From a bacterium (GTDB taxonomy: Bacteria > Chlamydiota > Chlamydiia > Chlamydiales > 2-12-FULL-49-11), in assembly GCA_021847505.1 (NCBI GenBank), contig JAJZEO010000072.1:4417-68416 (forward strand): a stretch of 64,000 nucleotides of DNA, written 5' to 3'. The translations under genes and the position numbers were made by a program. Shown here in pieces: positions 37,671-62,738 of the stretch. How positions within the stretch are numbered: position 1 is the first letter of the stretch; each line of letters opens with the position of its first letter. Below the pieces are notes generated by a model. It did not search any database and was not told the DNA's origin. It saw only the letters and a program-made list of their open reading frames with translations.

Positions 37671-38538
37671 TCAATTTTCCTTGGTTAAATGATTCTTCAC
37701 CAGGCAATGGGTTATCTTCGAATCGTTTAAGGGTGTCGACACCAAACGGGTTTTCCCCGCCCATGCGAACAATATGAGAAAGACCTACCAAGCCTTCCAT
37801 GGCAGAGGAATAAACGACTTGTTTATTTGCCTGTATGGCTTTGGCTGCAATTTCATAGCATTGCCTTTGCCCGCCAATCAATGTGGGTTTAATGATCAGA
37901 TGAGTCACTGATTTTTTTGCTAAAATGATGTCTAGGGGAACAATGCCTAAGGTTTTATCGATGGCAATGGAGACATGGGTTTGACTTGCAAAATAGTCTA
38001 ACAATCGAAAGGGTACCGGATCCTCAACATAGAGAAGTTCTCCCATCTCAAACCGATTGACAAAAGCGATCAATTCCCCTAAGTCCCATTTCTCATTGAT
38101 ATCGACCCTTACTTTAGCGCCGAACTTAAGCCATCCACGGATTCTCTCTTCTGTTTCTTCAACTGAAGGGGAAGCTTTGATTTTCACATGCAGAAATCGA
38201 TCGAGTGGAGGCTCATTTTCAAAGGAAAGATGGGTCATTGTGAATGAGCTGGACGCCGGTCTTTCCGCTAGATCATTTAAAGCGGATGAAAACCCGAAGA
38301 GTATAGAAGGGGGAAGGGGAAATAATTGAAAATTCCCTTTAAGTAACCCCTTTCCCATTTCTATGGTTGTCTTTTGCACTTCGTCAAAGGTTTCAATGCT
38401 TCGTCCAGGGAGGGGAGCAATCTCACCAAAGCCTACGGCCCCATGTTCGTCCATTAGGCGGATGAGCAGGCTCTTTTTTATCCCCCACTCTTTTAGATTC
38501 CGAGTAGAGAGCCTTAACTCAAAATCAATGATCCTCAT
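37627..38538 (-). CDS. menC: o-Succinylbenzoate synthase (enolase superfamily)
   Basis: 303 aa with metal-ligand contexts VRVDINEKWD and LLYVEDPV plus the lysine context IIKPTLIGG. Men operon context. Confidence 0.8.
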   Translation of the reverse strand: MRIIDFELRLSTRNLKEWGIKKSLLIRLMDEHGAVGFGEIAPLPGRSIETFDEVQKTTIEMGKGLLKGNFQLFPLPPSILFGFSSALNDLAERPASSSFTMTHLSFENEPPLDRFLHVKIKASPSVEETEERIRGWLKFGAKVRVDINEKWDLGELIAFVNRFEMGELLYVEDPVPFRLLDYFASQTHVSIAIDKTLGIVPLDIILAKKSVTHLIIKPTLIGGQRQCYEIAAKAIQANKQVVYSSAMEGLVGLSHIVRMGGENPFGVDTLKRFEDNPLPGEESFNQGKLNDPVPYFECMQKFF

Positions 38539-39584
38539 ACCAATAGTCCATAAGAAAGAGCTATAATATAAACGAGGGCGAGGAGGGCTACTTTGCTAAA
38601 AATTGCCAAGAACTCTTGAGGTTTTGTAGAAGAAAATGTCGCACGTACCAGGTGGAGAGCGGGAAAGATAAGGAGGAAGACTCCACCAACTCCCAGTGGT
38701 AAACAATAGAAGTAGACGAGCAGCCAAGGAAGAATCAATGGATAAAGTGTAAGAATGGCAAAAAGGGTTTTACCAAATTTTTGTCCGAACCTAACAACTA
38801 AAGTCCCCTTGTAAGCCACTTTATCAGAGATTTCATCGCGCAGGTTGTTCATGCATAATACGGCAGAGGTCATTCCGCCCAAGCAAATTCCTAACCAAAA
38901 TGGGGCAAAGCTGAATTGATGCGTTTGCATGTAATACATGATTTGAGTGGGGAGAGCTGCCATGAAGATCAAGTTGGTAAGCTCACCGAGTCCAAGATAG
39001 GCCAAAGGCATACCTACGTAAAATGAAGAATTGGGAATTTTTGAAGGCGGCGCCACAGATTTTTTCCAGGCGTCAGCCGACCGCGAAGCAGCCCCCTGTT
39101 GAAGACAGGGGCGATGCAGCGGGGCAGAAATATGCGGATGCCGCCGATGAAAAAACCAATTCTTCATTTTACGTGGGTATGAAGGGCCTTTTGAATAGCT
39201 AATGGCAATCATAACTACGCAAAGAAAAACTAAAGCTAAAATAGCTCCTTCCCTCCAGATCAATGGGGAAGCAAAAAGAAATGCAAGGGAAAATACAGTT
39301 ACCATCCCGATTTTCATCGCCCGAGTAGTTAAAGCTCCAGAGGCAACGGCTCGAACAGGTCCTATACGATTTTGCCGATCAGCTCCATTTTCGTAGTCAT
39401 AAACATCATTGGCATAATTGGCCCCAATTTGGAGAAAAAGAGCTGAAAAAAAACAAAGAAAAAACGTCATCCAGGAGAAAAAACCCTCATGATAACTGAG
39501 TGCGGAACCAACACAAACAGGAGCTAATCCGAAAGGTAGTGTTTTTGGTCTTGCCGCTTGAATCCAGATTTTTGGCGAGATCAT
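38535..39584 (-). CDS. menA: 1,4-dihydroxy-2-naphthoate polyprenyltransferase (UbiA family) carrying an in-frame ~57-aa insertion
   Basis: The protein is 349 aa, whereas I recall MenA being roughly 300 aa. It has the first Asp-rich motif NYANDVYDYENGAD. The conserved loop YSKGP...PLAYLGLGEL is split by SYPRKMKNWFFHRRHPHISAPLHRPCLQQGAASRSADAWKKSVAPPSKIPNSSFYVGM. Confidence 0.88.
   Translation of the reverse strand: MISPKIWIQAARPKTLPFGLAPVCVGSALSYHEGFFSWMTFFLCFFSALFLQIGANYANDVYDYENGADRQNRIGPVRAVASGALTTRAMKIGMVTVFSLAFLFASPLIWREGAILALVFLCVVMIAISYSKGPSYPRKMKNWFFHRRHPHISAPLHRPCLQQGAASRSADAWKKSVAPPSKIPNSSFYVGMPLAYLGLGELTNLIFMAALPTQIMYYMQTHQFSFAPFWLGICLGGMTSAVLCMNNLRDEISDKVAYKGTLVVRFGQKFGKTLFAILTLYPLILPWLLVYFYCLPLGVGGVFLLIFPALHLVRATFSSTKPQEFLAIFSKVALLALVYIIALSYGLLV
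39009..39181. repeat. GC-rich imperfect palindromic element inserted in frame in menA
   Basis: The terminal inverted repeats are CATACCTACGTAAAATGAAGAATTGG (39009-39034) and CCAATTCTTCATTTTACGTGGGTATG (39156-39181), matching 26 bp with 1 mismatch. Internal arms are partly complementary (GGCGGC.../...GCCGCC). The central hairpin is CCCCTGT-tgaag-ACAGGGG (39093-39111). The interior is visibly more GC-rich than the flanks. Confidence 0.85.
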
Positions 39585-40451: not shown

Positions 40452-41339
40452 TTACTGGAAAAATTGAAGGGTATTTATGGAATCCTGGACGGTGACATTC
40501 GGAAAAGATTGGTCATCAATGCAGGAGAGAAAATGCTCAAGTTCACCCTCCAAGGGGGCCTGATTTTCGACTTGGATCGAAACTTCTTCTCCGCCCTTAT
40601 TGCAAAAAAGTAGGGTTTGCTCGAACAAGTTACCTCGATATTGTCCAAATTCTGACAAAATCTCAATTTGTCTTAGTTTGTATGGATAGAGCCAGCTTGA
40701 TTCAATAATGCAAAAGCAATCACCCAAATTAAACGTAAGAGTTGAATAGTCACATAATTCTACATTAATGTTGCTATAAGACTTATATAGATTGACATTC
40801 CTTGTTCGATTTGAGCTCTCTTTGCTTTGAGAGGCTAATAGATAGAGACAAAGATCGATATCATGCACCGTAAGATCTTCATAGACGTTGATCGATTCGC
40901 GAGAGGGGGAATTACCCACTCGCTTACAGTTTACCGAGATAATTTTTCCGATTTGCCCTACGTCAATGAGCGACTTGATTTTTTTGATCACAGGATTAAA
41001 TCTCTCGAGGTGACCCACTAAAATTCGATCACTATGGGGAAGAAGAGTACGGGCTCTCTCAATGATGGTATCGACCGGCTTTTCTAAAAGAATGAACAAA
41101 TGGGGATTTTGCTCAAGAGCATGAACGCAATTTTCAACATGGGTGTTGGTGGGAGAGGCGATAATCAGCCCATCAAGCTTTTTGCAATCCTTAAGGAACT
41201 GGGTGTAATCACCATTGCAATCTCCCCCCTTGGGGTCATAAATAATCGGAATATCTGCTTTGTTAAGCTTCTTCAATTGGCGATAATGATTTTTCCCCAT
41301 TACACCAAAGCCGCAAATACCGATTTTAGCACGTTTCAT
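40452..41339 (-). CDS. Gfo/Idh/MocA-family NAD(P)-dependent oxidoreductase
   Basis: It has a Rossmann KIGICGFGVMGKNH, the EKP motif (LLEKPV) and GHLERFNP. The start is set at Met 41339 (MKRAKIG...). The track ORF extends to 41384. Confidence 0.8.
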   Translation of the reverse strand: MKRAKIGICGFGVMGKNHYRQLKKLNKADIPIIYDPKGGDCNGDYTQFLKDCKKLDGLIIASPTNTHVENCVHALEQNPHLFILLEKPVDTIIERARTLLPHSDRILVGHLERFNPVIKKIKSLIDVGQIGKIISVNCKRVGNSPSRESINVYEDLTVHDIDLCLYLLASQSKESSNRTRNVNLYKSYSNINVELCDYSTLTFNLGDCFCIIESSWLYPYKLRQIEILSEFGQYRGNLFEQTLLFCNKGGEEVSIQVENQAPLEGELEHFLSCIDDQSFPNVTVQDSINTLQFFQ

Positions 41340-42147
41340 ATTGGAAAATACCTTCGTGAATTTCTCTTGCAACCCTTTCGGCAACAGGACAATCTCCTGT
41401 GATGCCTAATTCTCTATAGATAGGCTGGTCATAAACCACTCTTGGGTAGTGGCCCGATTCAGGGCCTCGTAAGCCAAGCTCAGATTGTATTCCATGCATA
41501 TGTAGTTTCATTTGCTCATAAGCCATTAAACAGAGTGGCTCTGCAAGTCGGAAATTAAATCCTAGGTAGACATGATTATACTTGCCATCTTGCCCGTGAT
41601 CACAGATAGAACGGATCTTTCTTGCATCTAATATGGAATGTTTAGGGACGCAAATCATCCCCCCTTCAAAGGTAGAAATGTTTTTTGTCTTATAGAAGGA
41701 AAATGTTCCCACGTCGCCGATCATCCCTGCATAGCGGCCCCGCTCGTCCCTAGCTCCAAAGGCCTGCGCGGTATCTTCAATAACGATCAGGTCATAACGT
41801 CTGGCAATGTCCATGATTGCATCCATATCACAAATCCGACCAAAGAGGTGTATCGGCATGATGGCCTTCGTATTTTCCGTAATCGCTTCCTCAATTTTTG
41901 TGGCATCAAGAAGTAGTGTATAAGGGTCAATATCCACGAAAACAGGCTTTGCCCCTGCAAACAATATTGCATTGCTTGAGGCTATAAAAGTGAAAGGACT
42001 AAGGATCAGTTCATCTGTGGGTTTTAAATCTAATGAATACAAGGCTGCCATTAGAGCGCAAGTGCCATTGCAAACGGCAACACAATCTTCCACATCAAAC
42101 TGCTGCTTTACATAATCTTCAAATACGGCTCTTACGAAGGCGGGCAT
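41326..42147 (-). CDS. DegT/DnrJ/EryC1/StrS-family PLP aminotransferase, unusually short
   Basis: The protein is 273 aa, whereas I recall this family running about 360-390 aa. It has AVCNGTCALMAAL, DELILSPFTFIASSNAILFAGAKPVFVDID, IEDTAQAFGA and the PLP-lysine context FSFYKTKNISTFEGG, plus GFNFRLAEP and CPVAERVA. About 25-30 N-terminal residues, an internal stretch and the C-terminal tail appear to be missing. Confidence 0.7.
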   Translation of the reverse strand: MPAFVRAVFEDYVKQQFDVEDCVAVCNGTCALMAALYSLDLKPTDELILSPFTFIASSNAILFAGAKPVFVDIDPYTLLLDATKIEEAITENTKAIMPIHLFGRICDMDAIMDIARRYDLIVIEDTAQAFGARDERGRYAGMIGDVGTFSFYKTKNISTFEGGMICVPKHSILDARKIRSICDHGQDGKYNHVYLGFNFRLAEPLCLMAYEQMKLHMHGIQSELGLRGPESGHYPRVVYDQPIYRELGITGDCPVAERVAREIHEGIFQYETC

Positions 42148-60164: not shown

Positions 60165-62738
60165 TTATTTTAACGCTTTGGGGCGTTCCTTGGGTAAACG
60201 ATGGGCAGTTTCTAGGACCGTGCGATCTTTAGCCCTATTTTTTTGCCGCCTAGTATTCAAGGCTGTCGCATAGGCATCGGCACCTTGTAAGAGATCTGAG
60301 GGTCGCCCTCCAGTCGTCGCCCGTATGGGAAGAAGTTTGACCGAATTCTGCGTAAATGATTCATTCCCTGAATGGGGGTGATGAAGGCTTAGAAAACTGG
60401 CGGCATCATCGATCGATTTGAAGGAAATCTTAAAGGCACGATCATAATCACTCTGATCAGTTGAGGAGACAGTGGGATTAAGACCATGAGAATCCACAAT
60501 AGTAAAAAGGTATTGTTCTTCTCCTGTTTTTTCAATTACGAGAGCATAAATCGTAATTCCATTTTGAATAAAACCACCCACTTTGCTGGGAGTCTCGTGA
60601 ATAAGTCCGGCAAGCCTCATTAAAAGATCTTTGTAAATCCCTCTTTCTTGACCTTCGACTAGTGAGATTCCTTGAATAAATTCATCTTGTAAAAAGCCCA
60701 TGTTTGTAACCAATGGGACGACATCATCCTCGAAATTAAGCATGTGATTTGTTGTCAAACCACCAAGCTCAGGAGGTACTACTCGATAATACAAATATTC
60801 AGCCTCATCCATGATTTGATCAAATTCGAATTTCTTTCCGGGAGTCAGTAAGTAGACCAAAGCTAAGGCTGCGTAGCAAGAGCAAGCACAATTCGTGGGA
60901 GAGGCCTCTAATGGAGAATCTTTTGGAGGTTTCTGAGGCCACCAATTTCTTTCTCTTGATTGGGTAGGGCGATTAAATTGTGAATAGGCATGTAGTTGAA
61001 GTTGGCCCACTTCCTTTAATCTTTGGAATTCTCTTTTTTTAAAGTCTAATTGTTTTCTTTCAATTTGGCCTATCAATGGGGTAAATCTCGGGTTAAATGT
61101 GCTAACCCGTAATCGAAGCACTGCAGTTGTCGATGAAGGGTTTTGTTGCAATGCAGTGATAAATTGGGGATATCTGACTTGATCTCCAAAAAATTGCATT
61201 TGAAATAACCCCTTCAGGGTGCGATGGATGATGGCTTGGATGTTTTCTTGCTCTTTTTTAAGGAGAGCTCTTGATGCCGGGTCTCTCGAGCTAGTATAAT
61301 TTGAAAATAGCCCGACTGTTGTTTTGACTAATTGGGAGAGAATTAGGGCAAGAGTAGGAGCATCGATTATTTTTCCCCGATCACCAGAATAGAACAGCTG
61401 TTCATTCGTCGTTAGTCTTTTCTCAACACCAGCTAAATCAATGGCGGTTTTTGGTTCTGGTTCTAGTGGAGGCATACGCTTTGTAAAATCATCAGCGCGA
61501 ATTTGTATAAGTGTAAAGATTTCTGGTTGATCACGTCTTTCAATTTCGAAAAATTGATTTGCGAATTCAAGTGTGTAGGCAAAAGTAAATCGAACAAAAA
61601 GATTGGGAAACCCCTGTTTTGCATAGCTTTCTGTAATAGCTAAGAAAATCTGAAGATCATTTGTTAGTGAAATCAGTAGAGATAGATTGTCTCCATGCGT
61701 CACCTCTCTTTGAGAAAGCAGCTTAAGAAGCGAGGGCAATTGATCAAGAAAAAATAGAGCCGCCTCAGAATACAACATATTGAGAGGAGGAGTCATTTCT
61801 TGAGTTTTCAAGAGTTCTGAGTAATTTCGTAATACAACTGCAGCGAAATAACCAAGAGGGCAAGGGCGGGTAATCTCTTTAGCAAACAACATTTCGGCCT
61901 GGGGATGGAGAAATAGCAGACGAACTATCGTGAGGAGCTCATGGCCCTCTAATTGTTCAGCACCTTCGATAAGCACTAGAATAGCTTTCGAGTAAAGCTC
62001 CTGGATCTTGCCACTAGTTTCTTTATCCGATGCGAATCCATCTAGATCTTTCTGATCAAGCGCTAAGAATCTTTTCACTAAAGGCAAAGGATTGGTAGCC
62101 TTTGTGTACTCAAGGAGTTCTTTTCTAGCTTGAGGTTGGGTGTACTTTGCTGAGGTTGGGAATGAAATTTGTGGCTTTGGAATTTTAGAAGCACTTGAGG
62201 AAGGCGGTGGTAAACTCTCGGATGGTCCGGGAGGCGTTGGCGCTTTAACAACTCTAACTCTTGTTTTTTTTCTAGCAATTAAGAACATGGAAATTGGTTT
62301 TCCAAAGAGGTCTCTCTCTTCCGACTGTTCAAGAGGAGAGTCTAATTTCGTCTCGCTAAGGATCTTTTGCAGAGAGGTGACGAAATCTTTCTTCCCTGCC
62401 GAAGCATGTTTTTCGAGGTCTTTATAGCTGACGGATAAAATTGCATGAAGACCCTTTGAGATTTCGAACAAATCAGAAAATTTATCATGAATAGATTGAA
62501 TAAGATGGTCTAGATAAACCTCCCCGGATTCTCTTGTCTCTTGTTGGAGACTCAACTTCATTTGTACGGCTTGCGAAATTTGATCACAAAGAACCGCAAT
62601 CTCATGCTCAGCTTTGGTTCGGGGATACTTTTTTTCATTTGCGATTGTTGCTTCCACAGCAGCAACTTGCTGTTCTAGGGCTTGGAGAGCCTCTCTAGAT
62701 CTAGCTATAAGGGCAGGGGTAGAAGAAAGACTGTCCAT
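60165..62738 (-). CDS. Large hypothetical protein: coiled-coil N-terminus, Pro/Ser-rich linker, helical middle and C-terminal Cys...Asp-x-His peptidase-like module
   Basis: 857 aa. The linker is VKAPTPPGPSESLPPPSSSASKIPKPQ. The candidate nucleophile is in PTNCACSCYAALALVY (Cys codon 60888-60890). About 134 residues later comes a strand-turn YLFTIVDSHGL (His codon 60486-60488). The order and spacing fit a papain-like UBL protease (UfSP/C78-like D-x-H, or OTU-like). Confidence 0.55.
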   Translation of the reverse strand: MDSLSSTPALIARSREALQALEQQVAAVEATIANEKKYPRTKAEHEIAVLCDQISQAVQMKLSLQQETRESGEVYLDHLIQSIHDKFSDLFEISKGLHAILSVSYKDLEKHASAGKKDFVTSLQKILSETKLDSPLEQSEERDLFGKPISMFLIARKKTRVRVVKAPTPPGPSESLPPPSSSASKIPKPQISFPTSAKYTQPQARKELLEYTKATNPLPLVKRFLALDQKDLDGFASDKETSGKIQELYSKAILVLIEGAEQLEGHELLTIVRLLFLHPQAEMLFAKEITRPCPLGYFAAVVLRNYSELLKTQEMTPPLNMLYSEAALFFLDQLPSLLKLLSQREVTHGDNLSLLISLTNDLQIFLAITESYAKQGFPNLFVRFTFAYTLEFANQFFEIERRDQPEIFTLIQIRADDFTKRMPPLEPEPKTAIDLAGVEKRLTTNEQLFYSGDRGKIIDAPTLALILSQLVKTTVGLFSNYTSSRDPASRALLKKEQENIQAIIHRTLKGLFQMQFFGDQVRYPQFITALQQNPSSTTAVLRLRVSTFNPRFTPLIGQIERKQLDFKKREFQRLKEVGQLQLHAYSQFNRPTQSRERNWWPQKPPKDSPLEASPTNCACSCYAALALVYLLTPGKKFEFDQIMDEAEYLYYRVVPPELGGLTTNHMLNFEDDVVPLVTNMGFLQDEFIQGISLVEGQERGIYKDLLMRLAGLIHETPSKVGGFIQNGITIYALVIEKTGEEQYLFTIVDSHGLNPTVSSTDQSDYDRAFKISFKSIDDAASFLSLHHPHSGNESFTQNSVKLLPIRATTGGRPSDLLQGADAYATALNTRRQKNRAKDRTVLETAHRLPKERPKALK

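Follow-up and report, generated by a model that had tools for sequence, protein, structure and literature searches.

Introduction

The palindromic elements of Rickettsia, designated RPE-1 to RPE-10, were described by Ogata et al. (2000, 2002). They are found in intergenic DNA as well as in-frame in unrelated housekeeping genes, where they encode a conserved peptide that is apparently compatible with the fold of the host protein (PMC10969869). In R. felis, ORFs contain 85 of the 728 RPEs.

Correia elements of Neisseria are MITEs of the Tc1/mariner-IS630 type, which duplicate TA, are mostly intergenic and are known for promoter, IHF and RNase III effects and not for coding in-frame. Intragenic MITEs sometimes fused in-frame with host ORFs are mentioned, in PMC10969869 and PMC5896051, for QMITE1 of Coxiella, ERIC, Anabaena MITEs and pneumococcal BOX. 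MITECca01, known from one strain, the Cardinium endosymbiont of Oedothorax gibbosus (Bacteroidota), is derived from IS982 and is described as pseudogenising other mobile elements (Halter et al. 2022). REPs are extragenic palindromes of 20-40 bp with GTAG/CGTC heads (PMC3733652). The accessible literature on environmental chlamydiae deals with IS elements only.

Here we describe a palindrome that lies within a chlamydial menA gene. It is very likely a MITE copy belonging to a family dispersed among Chlamydiota, inserted in-frame by a transposase acting in trans and tolerated by the host protein as a loop.

The palindrome and its host gene

Features of the locus are listed in Table 1.

Table 1. 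Features of the palindromic element and its host gene (positions refer to the window, i.e. the whole 64-kb stretch of DNA that was analysed)
Feature	Position	Strand	Remarks
Palindromic element, limits of the original prediction (173 bp)	39009-39181		inside menA
Element core, 169 nt	39011..39179	-	very probably a member of the chlamydial MITE family
Core sequence on the menA-sense strand			TACCCACG...CGTAGGTA
Left terminal inverted repeat as originally defined, 26 nt	39009..39034	+	bases 1-2 (CA) are at the position of the target-site duplication
Right terminal inverted repeat, 26 nt	39156..39181	+	final 2 bases (TG) are at the position of the target-site duplication
Flanking dinucleotide CA (menA-sense: TG)	39009..39010	.	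site holding the TA duplication in 41/50 family copies
Flanking dinucleotide TG (menA-sense: CA)	39180..39181	.	second copy, presumed mutated TA duplication
Central hairpin CCCCTGT-TGAAG-ACAGGGG	39093..39111	.	marks the centre of symmetry; from DNA/RNA folds
171 nt = 57 codons (S135-G191), extra in MenA relative to orthologues	39012..39182	-	phase-0 frame of the element; from protein alignments, DNA comparison with the orthologue and frame analysis
Family end sequences			TACCCAAACAA...TTGTTTGGGTA
menA (1,4-dihydroxy-2-naphthoate polyprenyltransferase, UbiA family), 349 aa, intact	38535..39584	-	within the men gene cluster

The original prediction of a palindrome at 39009-39181 proved accurate: its 26-nt arms are complementary at 25 of 26 positions (96%), the single mismatch included in the claim. 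When the 64-kb window was searched allowing up to three mismatches, only the two arms matched (0 matches expected, 100 shuffles). For the 181-nt region the folding energy was -52.6 kcal/mol (z -8.2) for DNA and -82.3 kcal/mol (z -9.3) for RNA, and in neither case did any shuffled sequence fold as well. Both the 7-bp central hairpin and the GGCGGC/GCCGCC inner stems that had been proposed are present in the folds, and the interior is indeed GC-rich (up to 0.63 in the core versus ~0.43 in the flanks). The extra ~13 nt ascribed to the left arm are roughly right, and are seen as unbalanced indels in an alignment of the element with its own reverse complement. Only two of the six frames of the element are open; they form a symmetric pair, one on each strand, and both read RKMKNW...NSSFYVGM. 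Comparison with the family members described below indicates that the element proper is the 169-nt core, with the outermost CA/TG excluded.

The insert breaks the Pfam PF01040 match of MenA (2.4e-25) into two stretches. From ten close orthologues (~292 aa) exactly 57 residues are missing, between YSxGP and xPLAYLGLGE, in agreement with the claimed interruption by about 57 residues between GP and PL, and the insert is also absent from 68/68 homologues in a deeper MenA alignment; thus neither set contains a homologous loop. All DnaA matches that carried an organism name belonged to Chlamydiota. The identical 349-aa MenA is present on 11 contigs from independent assemblies, and assembly GCA_027452445.1 contains an identical protein.

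An AlphaFold2 model of MenA has the nine-helix fold of UbiA prenyltransferases and matches the UbiA-family structures UBIAD1, AfUbiA and ApUbiA (8djk, 4tq3/4, 4od4/5). Its pLDDT is 87.6 overall, 95-98 in the core and 41-64 in the insert, which, if translated as we infer, would be a basic, disordered loop. Modelling had been proposed as a way to see whether the insert projects from a cytoplasmic loop. It would form a loop on the side of the membrane where the two Asp-rich catalytic loops are also located, and to judge from UbiA enzymes of known structure this side would be cytoplasmic.

As the insertion splits a conserved motif adjoining the active site, with YSxGP and xPLAYLGLGE on its two sides, the function of MenA could be impaired. 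Inactivation or crippling of the enzyme has thus to be considered, with the open frame being due to a stop-free element and a recent event, and with menaquinone synthesis decaying or rescued otherwise. Since the element is built without stops in this phase, the open frame alone is no proof of selection. Several observations speak against inactivation: all family-invariant MenA residues are kept, among them both invariant Asp-rich motifs (N59/D60/D63/D69 and N247/R249/D250/D254), the protein outside the insert is 75% identical to the nearest orthologue and its core is modelled with high confidence, the men genes next to it are intact, and the gene, including the element DNA, is the same in all of the seven loci retrieved, which represent several samples, and contains neither a frameshift nor a stop. 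Moreover, other copies of the element lie in-frame in intact AroB, RecC and RecD-like genes. Taking these observations together, we consider loss of MenA function unlikely.

Alternatively, the 171 nt could be removed after transcription or translation, as a mini-intron, an intein or by translational bypass, so that mature MenA would be normal. The conserved insertion site, often encountered with homing elements, and the strong RNA structure are consistent with such removal. However, Rfam was negative at the gathering threshold and also at E<=1, Pfam and NCBIfam gave no match, 171 nt is far smaller than group I/II introns, the junction (S...G/M, the slash marking the boundary) is without the nucleophile and HN boundary residues of inteins, and copies of the element that are flanked by TA duplications lie between genes as well. 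Identity with a self-splicing intron or an intein was therefore rejected, and removal by any of these routes seems extremely improbable.

Related elements in other Chlamydiota

The family was traced with a profile of the two open frames of the element and then with a degenerate pattern of the arms. Exhaustive profile searching detected the element peptide, in either orientation, in six other proteins; no contig was located for the profile-search proteins P0121 and P0122, and P0124 and P0125 were rejected as carriers because they are LRR repeat proteins with partial, spurious matches. The null result of a word-index protein search with both element peptides was discarded, as this search missed even the window MenA (130 bits locally).

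The degenerate arm pattern identified 97 stretches, most of them in ~30 Chlamydiota MAGs, and 67 full and 52 partial copies were counted in 830 kb. Counts of flanks, lengths and frames given below are based on 50 curated copies; since copies were retrieved by intact arms or open frames, this census is biased to well-preserved, translatable copies. The core lengths are 154-217 nt. The terminal inverted repeats are conserved over ~25-30 nt (TACCCAAACAA.TTGAAGAAT.GG), and the consensus arm of the family reads TAC[CT]CAAACAA[AC]TTGAAGAAT[CT]GG. In nhmmer the window copy scored 175 bits over model positions 1-172 of a three-copy profile, and 98 bits with a 42-copy profile.

Full-length copies with the same ends, 72-78% identical to the window copy, were found in two loci, L014 and L015, which share its central hairpin motif; other subfamilies have different central palindromes. 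L014 contains two full copies and fragments in 21 kb, one copy being intergenic. Many separate element loci are present in the closed chromosomes OY970364 and OY970179, CAVQHD010000001.1 is likewise a closed chromosome rich in copies, and nested and truncated copies also exist.

Several short matches were dismissed. A 19-mer match in the metagenome collection (L011) is due to chance and lies in a cysS gene encoding ARKMKNW. Likewise, no element stands behind the 24-mer matches in L070 (Bacteroides), L100 (Acholeplasmataceae), L111 (Saprospiraceae) and L113 (a giant-virus bin), which are chance matches. In L108 (Flavobacteriaceae) only a solo arm was present. The exact 19-mer of the window arm had no match in the genome collection, the plasmid collection gave no match, and a relative close (>80%) to the window subtype was detected neither in the genome collection nor in the metagenome collection.

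The claim that the window holds a single copy was correct, and neither another copy nor a relic turned up in ~82 kb of the genome of the window organism or in ~43 kb from relatives. The copy count that had been suggested as a check has two outcomes: copies exist in related genomes, some of them in ORFs, and ~82 kb of the organism's own genome yielded just the one. The possibility that no other copy exists anywhere, named at the outset as fatal to the idea of an element, did not materialize, as many copies, both intergenic and in-frame, are present in other chlamydial genomes.

The single copy in ~82 kb, together with flanks that are not TA/TA, would also be compatible with a local, lineage-specific expansion of the loop by replication foldback or inverted duplication, in which no mobile element is involved. 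This explanation is effectively refuted, and hardly credible in our view, given the full-length homologues with the same ends that occupy unrelated genes and spacers in many other genomes. Together with the loopless orthologues, the copies elsewhere support the original view that the palindrome is a mobile element and that it preserves the frame in the manner of RPEs.

Mobility signature and the putative transposase

In 41 of the 50 copies (82%) the element is flanked by TA on both sides (TA/TAC...GTA/TA, slashes marking the element ends), and sequence conservation ends at the TA, which thus represents a target-site duplication. The elements are small (<~600 bp), are without a transposase gene of their own, carry terminal inverted repeats and are dispersed; multiple copies within a genome were seen in L014, OY970364 and OY970179, the window organism having one. 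The best reading of these properties is that the family is a non-autonomous MITE. Duplication of TA on insertion, which characterizes the Tc1/mariner-IS630 group, suggests that the family is probably moved by a Tc1/IS630-type transposase.

No autonomous element with matching ends was detected in 8-kb windows around the matches, no arm pairs were found 0.5-4 kb apart except for the separate L014 copies, and no recurring ORF was found beside 65 solo arms; consequently, it is the TA duplication alone that indicates the class of the transposase. The window copy has CA/TG flanks, which differ from TA/TA by a complementary pair of transitions, so the TA-target model requires two later transitions for this copy.

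The lack of a DDE partner in these searches could also mean that an HUH/Y1 transposase moves the family in the form of single-stranded DNA hairpins, in the manner of IS200/IS605-type PATEs or of REP/RAYT, and not by a DDE enzyme of the Tc1/IS630 type. The palindromes extend over the whole length of the elements, and the stems covary beyond the terminal repeats, as would be expected if the hairpin were the substrate. However, IS200/IS605 elements have neither terminal inverted repeats nor target duplications, whereas the chlamydial family has symmetric repeats of ~25 nt and a duplicated TA in most copies, and its elements, 154-217 nt long and starting with TAC, are unlike REPs. We regard an HUH/Y1 mechanism as very improbable.

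Palindromy and frame preservation

All 50 curated copies are palindromic over their whole length, and the palindromes are maintained by compensatory changes. In the pairing analysis 94% of the cells were paired and 130 cells were compensatory, as compared to 44 in shuffled and <=37 in slid controls; in helix 1 the paired fraction was 97% (36 aligned copies). Fold z-scores were between -6 and -19 across all copies, including decayed intergenic ones.

Core lengths are mostly 3n+1, the core length plus 2 being divisible by three in 34/50 copies and in 22/38 of those outside long ORFs. On each strand there is a stop-free phase-0 frame (TAC-CCA-AAC...). The phase-0 frames were open in 18 and 28 of the 50 copies, with 2-4 expected, and phase 1 was open in none. 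Twelve of the 50 copies are in-frame within long ORFs, the hosts being AroB, RecD-like, RecC, AMP-ligase, Hsp70-like, amine oxidase, GT2, ankyrin and other proteins. Subfamilies with unrelated centres have in common the 3n+1 cores, the stop-free phase-0 frames and the whole-length hairpin pairing. It is possible, and we suggest it tentatively, that the family is adapted to life inside genes and thus constitutes a second, independently evolved case of 'protein-coding palindromic selfish DNA', located in an obligate intracellular phylum and convergent with the RPEs of Rickettsia.

The strong secondary structure raises the question of domestication, i.e. of a hairpin that acts in the menB-menA-menC-menE transcript in RNA processing or stability, or of a basic loop that provides MenA with a new interaction, either being kept by selection. 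The very stable RNA hairpin (-82 kcal/mol), the compensatory changes that maintain pairing family-wide and beyond the terminal repeats, the CA/TG flanks, which lengthen the stem of the window copy by a compensatory pair, and the net charge of +9, which suits a loop on the cytoplasmic face, are all in line with such a role. On the other hand, palindromy is common to all copies, even those decaying between genes, and is therefore a property of the element and not of the menA locus. Rfam gave no match to the hairpin, and signals for transcription were not above chance (no terminator and one weak promoter-like site, at chance level). Moreover, the peptide is predicted to be disordered, and the nearest relatives do without the insert. 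Domestication at menA thus appears quite improbable.

Proposed history of the menA copy

If the palindrome is a transposed MITE copy, as we believe, a Tc1/IS630-type DDE transposase supplied in trans would have cut and pasted the 169-nt copy into a TA of menA. This TA would have been located within the variable codon between GP and PLAY, the ancestral sequence being something like CCT-TTA-CCT. Because 169 + 2 = 171 nt correspond to 57 codons, and with the TA at codon positions 2-3, the element would have been entered in its open phase and read through. The product would be a MenA with a proline-rich loop of 57 residues, carrying a net charge of +9, between TM4 and TM5. Since the insert is predicted to be disordered and the catalytic core is intact, MenA most likely tolerates it without benefiting from it. 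The insertion would be younger than the divergence from the nearest sequenced relative, and would have become fixed in every sample of the window organism.

Implications

No prior description of the chlamydial palindromic family was found in the literature, in agreement with the remark in the original prediction that such elements had not been described in chlamydia-like organisms. A family of tiny mobile elements in environmental chlamydiae has thus apparently gone undescribed so far. It spans Rhabdochlamydiaceae, Parachlamydiaceae, Simkaniaceae and deeper lineages, and would add a layer of mobile elements to the evolution of genomes that are usually called repeat-poor. In-frame colonisation of essential enzymes (MenA, AroB, RecC, RecD-like, Hsp70-like) would not be peculiar to Rickettsia, and may be what intracellular life generally leads to where genomes are gene-dense. 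The TA duplication, the 3n+1 core and the stop-free frames together would provide an arithmetic rule for frame preservation, a handle absent from work on RPEs. If the family is indeed adapted to residing in genes, its readable transposition signature (TA duplication and terminal inverted repeats), in which it differs from RPEs, would make the mechanism of in-frame gene invasion testable. In practical terms, the family accounts for odd 'loops' of 50-60 aa and for split domain matches in the annotation of chlamydial MAGs, and presence or absence of copies could be used as strain-typing markers.

Comparison with known elements

MITECca01, a 'widespread MITE' of Cardinium, resembles the chlamydial family in being a MITE of a host-restricted intracellular bacterium, but it is unrelated, with a different origin and host, and was dismissed as a prior description. 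Identity with REPs or BIMEs was also dismissed, as the chlamydial elements are 154-217 nt long, start with TAC and are often intragenic. QMITE1, ERIC, the Anabaena MITEs and BOX belong to hosts that are not related to chlamydiae and, to the extent of the searches, are not related to the family in sequence either; in-frame insertion is described as occasional with them, whereas in the chlamydial family it is built into lengths and frames, and this in several subfamilies.

Similarity to the Correia elements is closer and comprises terminal inverted repeats of ~26 nt, a size of ~100-170 bp, TA duplication, dispersed copies and co-transcription as long hairpins. The chlamydial family differs from them in its systematic 3n+1 cores and stop-free frames, in the sequence of the arms, and in that no parental IS was found.

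With RPEs the chlamydial elements share the character of short palindromes (~100-150 bp in RPEs, 154-217 bp here), an obligate intracellular lineage as host, and the occurrence of copies both intergenically and in-frame in unrelated housekeeping genes, with an encoded peptide that is conserved and apparently tolerated by the protein fold; the proportion within ORFs is 12/50 copies as compared to 85/728 for the RPEs of R. felis. The hosts are Chlamydiota in one case and Alphaproteobacteria in the other. NCBIfam includes the TIGRFAM models of RPE domains, and eight element peptides, representing both orientations and four subfamilies, matched no RPE or other curated family in NCBIfam or Pfam at E<=10; the likeness to RPEs is therefore one of behaviour only. 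As judged from peptide models, which were compared instead of nucleotides, the chlamydial family is not RPE by sequence. Terminal inverted repeats and TA target duplication, which are clear in the chlamydial family, are to our knowledge not a stated feature of RPEs. On account of these two properties, a Tc1/IS630-style MITE is a better description of the family than an RPE.

The palindrome in menA

From the sequence alone, a palindrome of about 173 bp had been described with 26-bp arms differing by a single mismatch, inner arms around GGCGGC/GCCGCC, a central 7-bp hairpin, an interior more GC-rich than the gene and symmetric open frames on both strands, in one copy in the window. All these features were recovered. 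The predicted fold contains inner stems of GGCGGC/GCCGCC with the hairpin CCCCTGT/ACAGGGG at the centre, the GC content of the core is 0.63 as against approximately 0.43 in the flanks, and only two of the six frames are open through the element, a symmetric pair, one per strand, both reading RKMKNW...NSSFYVGM. The element region is predicted to fold far more stably than shuffled controls, with -52.6 kcal/mol (z = -8.2) as DNA and with -82.3 kcal/mol (z = -9.3) as RNA. No third match to the arms was found in the window at up to three mismatches, and 100 shuffles gave none.

Coordinates of the palindrome, its host gene and selected family copies (core, element without the flanking TA duplication)
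Feature	Sequence	Position	Strand	Size	Remarks
Imperfect palindrome	window	39009-39181		173 bp	inside menA
Arms	window	39009-39034 and 39156-39181		26 nt each	96% complementary
Core	window	39011-39179		169 nt	
Flanks of core	window	39009-39010; 39180-39181			CA; TG (TA/TA in the family)
menA	window	38535-39584	minus	349-aa ORF	UbiA family
Oxidoreductase and aminotransferase genes	window	40452-42147			between menH and menB
Nested and degenerate copies	locus L014	7384-7582 and 8350-8450			one chlamydial contig
Composite/expanded copy	locus L020	6655-6958		304 nt	in-frame in 625-aa ORF, Rhabdochlamydiaceae MAG
Phase-2 copy	locus L077	2432-2603		172 nt	942-aa ankyrin-repeat ORF, Rhabdochlamydia MAG

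The neighbours of menA are menB, menC and menE. In the ten closest MenA orthologues (approximately 292 aa), exactly 57 residues are missing between YSxGP and xPLAYLGLGE, which makes precise the predicted interruption of about 57 residues between GP and PL, and a 69-sequence alignment agreed with this comparison. The window reads GGC CCT T[171 nt]TG CCT TTG where the nearest orthologue has GGC CCC TTC CCT TTA, and the core plus 2 nt (169 + 2 = 171 nt, 57 codons) equals the gap in the protein exactly. Eleven contigs from several ENA and Logan assemblies encode the identical 349-aa MenA, and in all seven loci retrieved the element agreed base for base, which rules out an assembly artefact.

The men cluster also holds genes for a GFO/IDH/MocA-type oxidoreductase and a DegT/DnrJ-type aminotransferase, which would not be expected in a classical menaquinone operon. 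This arrangement is conserved in relatives (loci L001, L004, L012 and L013).

Consequence for the MenA protein

An AlphaFold2 model of MenA built on the 69-sequence alignment (mean pLDDT 87.6) matches the fold of UBIAD1 and archaeal UbiA structures. The helices flanking the insert are modeled with pLDDT 95-98, residues ~135-191 with pLDDT 41-64, as coil except for one short helix. Helix counting puts the insert, which connects TM4 (114-131) to TM5 (200-221), on the side of the membrane where loops 2-3 and 6-7 bear the Asp-rich motifs. In solved UbiA enzymes this side faces the cytoplasm and covers the active site; by analogy, the insert would be cytoplasmic. The insert peptide contains 5 R, 5 K, 4 H, 1 D and 7 P, and its net charge of +9 suits a cytoplasmic loop. 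Since the alignment shows all invariant MenA residues to be present, we infer that the insert is a tolerated, translated, floppy loop. That the insertion cripples the enzyme appears unlikely, and exaptation of this copy as an RNA or protein feature even more so. RNA splicing or intein excision is highly improbable, as the insert has no match in Rfam, Pfam or NCBIfam.

Search for further copies

Searching with the exact 19-mer of the window arm yielded nothing genuine: the only metagenome match (L011, 3040-3058) was a chance hit where a cysteinyl-tRNA synthetase gene encodes ARKMKNW in its C-terminal region, with no palindrome. A word-index protein search returned nothing and was discarded because, queried with the 57-aa insert, it missed the window's own MenA (130 bits in local phmmer). 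A profile was built from both open frames, which in simulations detected either orientation down to ~60-70% identity, and was searched exhaustively against 1.84 billion representative proteins. Six proteins matched the whole profile: two of them (P0121 and P0123) have the peptide in menA sense (...LKNWFFHR.HP...APLHRPC...SKIPNSS...), and four (P0122, P0126, P0127 and P0128) have that of the opposite strand (...LKNWEFSK...EKTNSS...). P0123 is a 3-dehydroquinate synthase encoded in an aro operon, in which the element separates the N- and C-terminal domains; P0127 (287 aa) resembles the archease and 2'-5' RNA ligase families weakly, with scores under the Pfam thresholds. At the DNA level, these copies share 72-78% identity with the window element along its entire length.

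A leucine-rich-repeat protein (P0125, 562 aa) scored E = 1e-4 in the same search; its repeat unit NWDFLKALPQLT is similar to the beginning of the opposite-strand peptide, KNWEFLKAAPQI, probably by coincidence.

Locus L014 (21 kb) contains another full copy, located in a spacer, in which stops interrupt five of six frames and the phase-0 frames (phase 0, TAC-CCA-AAC...) are closed. A solo arm at this locus directly abuts a full copy (TA-TA junction), and a truncated copy is followed by a mini-derivative of ~45 nt that runs from arm to arm. Copies thus exist in other chlamydial genomes, both intergenic and within ORFs. With these copies, and no such loop in the close orthologues, the finding is real, and its interpretation as a mobile palindromic element is supported. 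A local, non-mobile duplication, hardly conceivable to us, is refuted by the existence of the family.

Distribution among genomes

A degenerate arm pattern covering both subtypes matched 97 stretches in a collection of species-representative genomes, among which the window organism was not included. The matching assemblies were labeled Chlamydiota (24), Verrucomicrobia(e) (7) or otherwise (5), and in 830 kb a 42-copy profile recognized 67 complete and 52 partial copies. The Chlamydiota-labeled carriers comprise Rhabdochlamydiaceae, Parachlamydiaceae, Simkaniaceae, unclassified members and two fragmentary bins named 'Chlamydia trachomatis'. The loci from the seven Verrucomicrobia(e)-labeled MAGs (L017, L018, L025, L030, L032, L036, L042-L044, L050, L060 and others) hold genuine copies, and their syntenic orthologues are ~50-65% identical to chlamydial-labeled loci and to the window; the carriers are therefore probably chlamydial relatives, which suggests mislabeled bins and not cross-phylum spread. 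Pattern matches in Bacteroides, Acholeplasmataceae, Saprospiraceae and a giant-virus bin were bare 24-mers.

The environmental MAGs titled 'Chlamydia trachomatis' (MaH-04nov19-12 and -293; loci L035, L037, L040, L045, L052, L053, L057, L059, L066, L072, L082, L083, L085, L089 and L099) are among the richest in copies; they appear to be environmental chlamydia under a wrong taxonomic name.

By its DnaA, the window organism belongs to Chlamydiota but is distant from named taxa (identity no higher than 51%). In its nearest relative (DnaA 85% identical) MenA has no insert, and no further copy was found in ~82 kb of the window organism or ~43 kb from relatives. A protein encoded in MAG GCA_027452445.1 (L118, DAIEDQ010000198.1) is identical to that of window ORF 60165-62738, so the organism has been binned before.

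Structure of the family copies

Fifty different full-length copies were compared in a census, which favours copies with intact arms or open frames and in which counts are inflated by subfamily inheritance. Forty-one copies are flanked as TA|TAC...GTA|TA and family conservation ends at TA, which is a TA target-site duplication. The common core lengths (154, 160, 166, 169, 172, 184 and 217 nt) are all 3n+1; length plus 2 is divisible by 3 for 34 of the 50 copies overall and for 22 of the 38 outside long ORFs. The phase-0 frame is open in 18 copies on one strand and in 28 on the other, against 2-4 expected, and phase 1 in none. Twelve copies lie in-frame within long ORFs (MenA, AroB, a RecD-like helicase, RecC, an AMP-binding ligase, an Hsp70-like protein, a flavin amine oxidase, a glycosyltransferase, an ankyrin protein and three others). 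In a UPRTase, a copy is found at the N-terminus. The composite copy of L020 obeys the same arithmetic (304 + 2 = 306 nt, 102 codons).

The L077 copy, read in phase 2 (IPKQLEKLGIW...FFRLFGY), indicates that more than one phase is tolerable.

In the six profile-search proteins the codon preceding Y-P is I, L or V (NTA), or T or S where the flank is mutated to CA; the last element codon is I (ATA) in every carrier but the window copy, where it is M (ATG). These junction codons fit TA at codon positions 2-3. The CA/TG flanks of the window copy are two transitions away from TA/TA, and because they are mutual partners in the hairpin, adding a C-G pair to the stem, they lengthen the palindrome to 173 bp. 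If the ancestral target was CCT-TTA-CCT, two transitions would be needed to reach them; Leu does occur at this position in MenA orthologues. Chance, hairpin-templated correction or repair, or a non-canonical target could account for these flanks.

All copies are palindromic over their full length (fold z -6 to -19), and the central sequence differs between subfamilies, each of which has a palindrome of its own there. In the outer 34 alignable pairs 94.3% of cells are paired, compared with 84.1% in shuffled and at most 60% in slid alignments, with 130 double-sided changes (44 shuffled, at most 37 slid); covariation was seen at every pair beyond the terminal repeats. This covarying palindrome would fit movement as single-stranded DNA hairpins by a Y1/HUH enzyme, but the TA duplication and terminal inverted repeats speak against it, and we consider such movement very unlikely. 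The menA insert is one member of a dispersed, TA-duplicating family with terminal inverted repeats and without transposase coding, which would be mobilized in trans by a Tc1/IS630-type DDE transposase; no such partner was found in the loci retrieved.

Comparison with known elements

The original prediction knew of no such elements in chlamydia-like organisms, and no description of a MITE (miniature inverted-repeat transposable element) or coding palindrome in Chlamydiota was found in the searchable literature. The family thus seems to be a new MITE or coding palindromic repeat in a phylum without apparent prior report, and its frame-preserving design is unusually clear. The MITE described from Cardinium by a chlamydia-oriented laboratory derives from IS982 and is not related to this family. 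Correia elements are TA-duplicating bacterial MITEs, which the chlamydial family resembles in its transposition signature. Closest in behaviour are the Rickettsia palindromic elements, which are palindromic, ~150 bp long, found in an intracellular host and frequently inserted in-frame with a conserved peptide (PMC10969869). The predicted likeness to them stands for the in-frame palindromic insertion and does not extend to membership: the host phylum differs, the encoded peptides have no similarity to any curated family, and the chlamydial element is not one of them.
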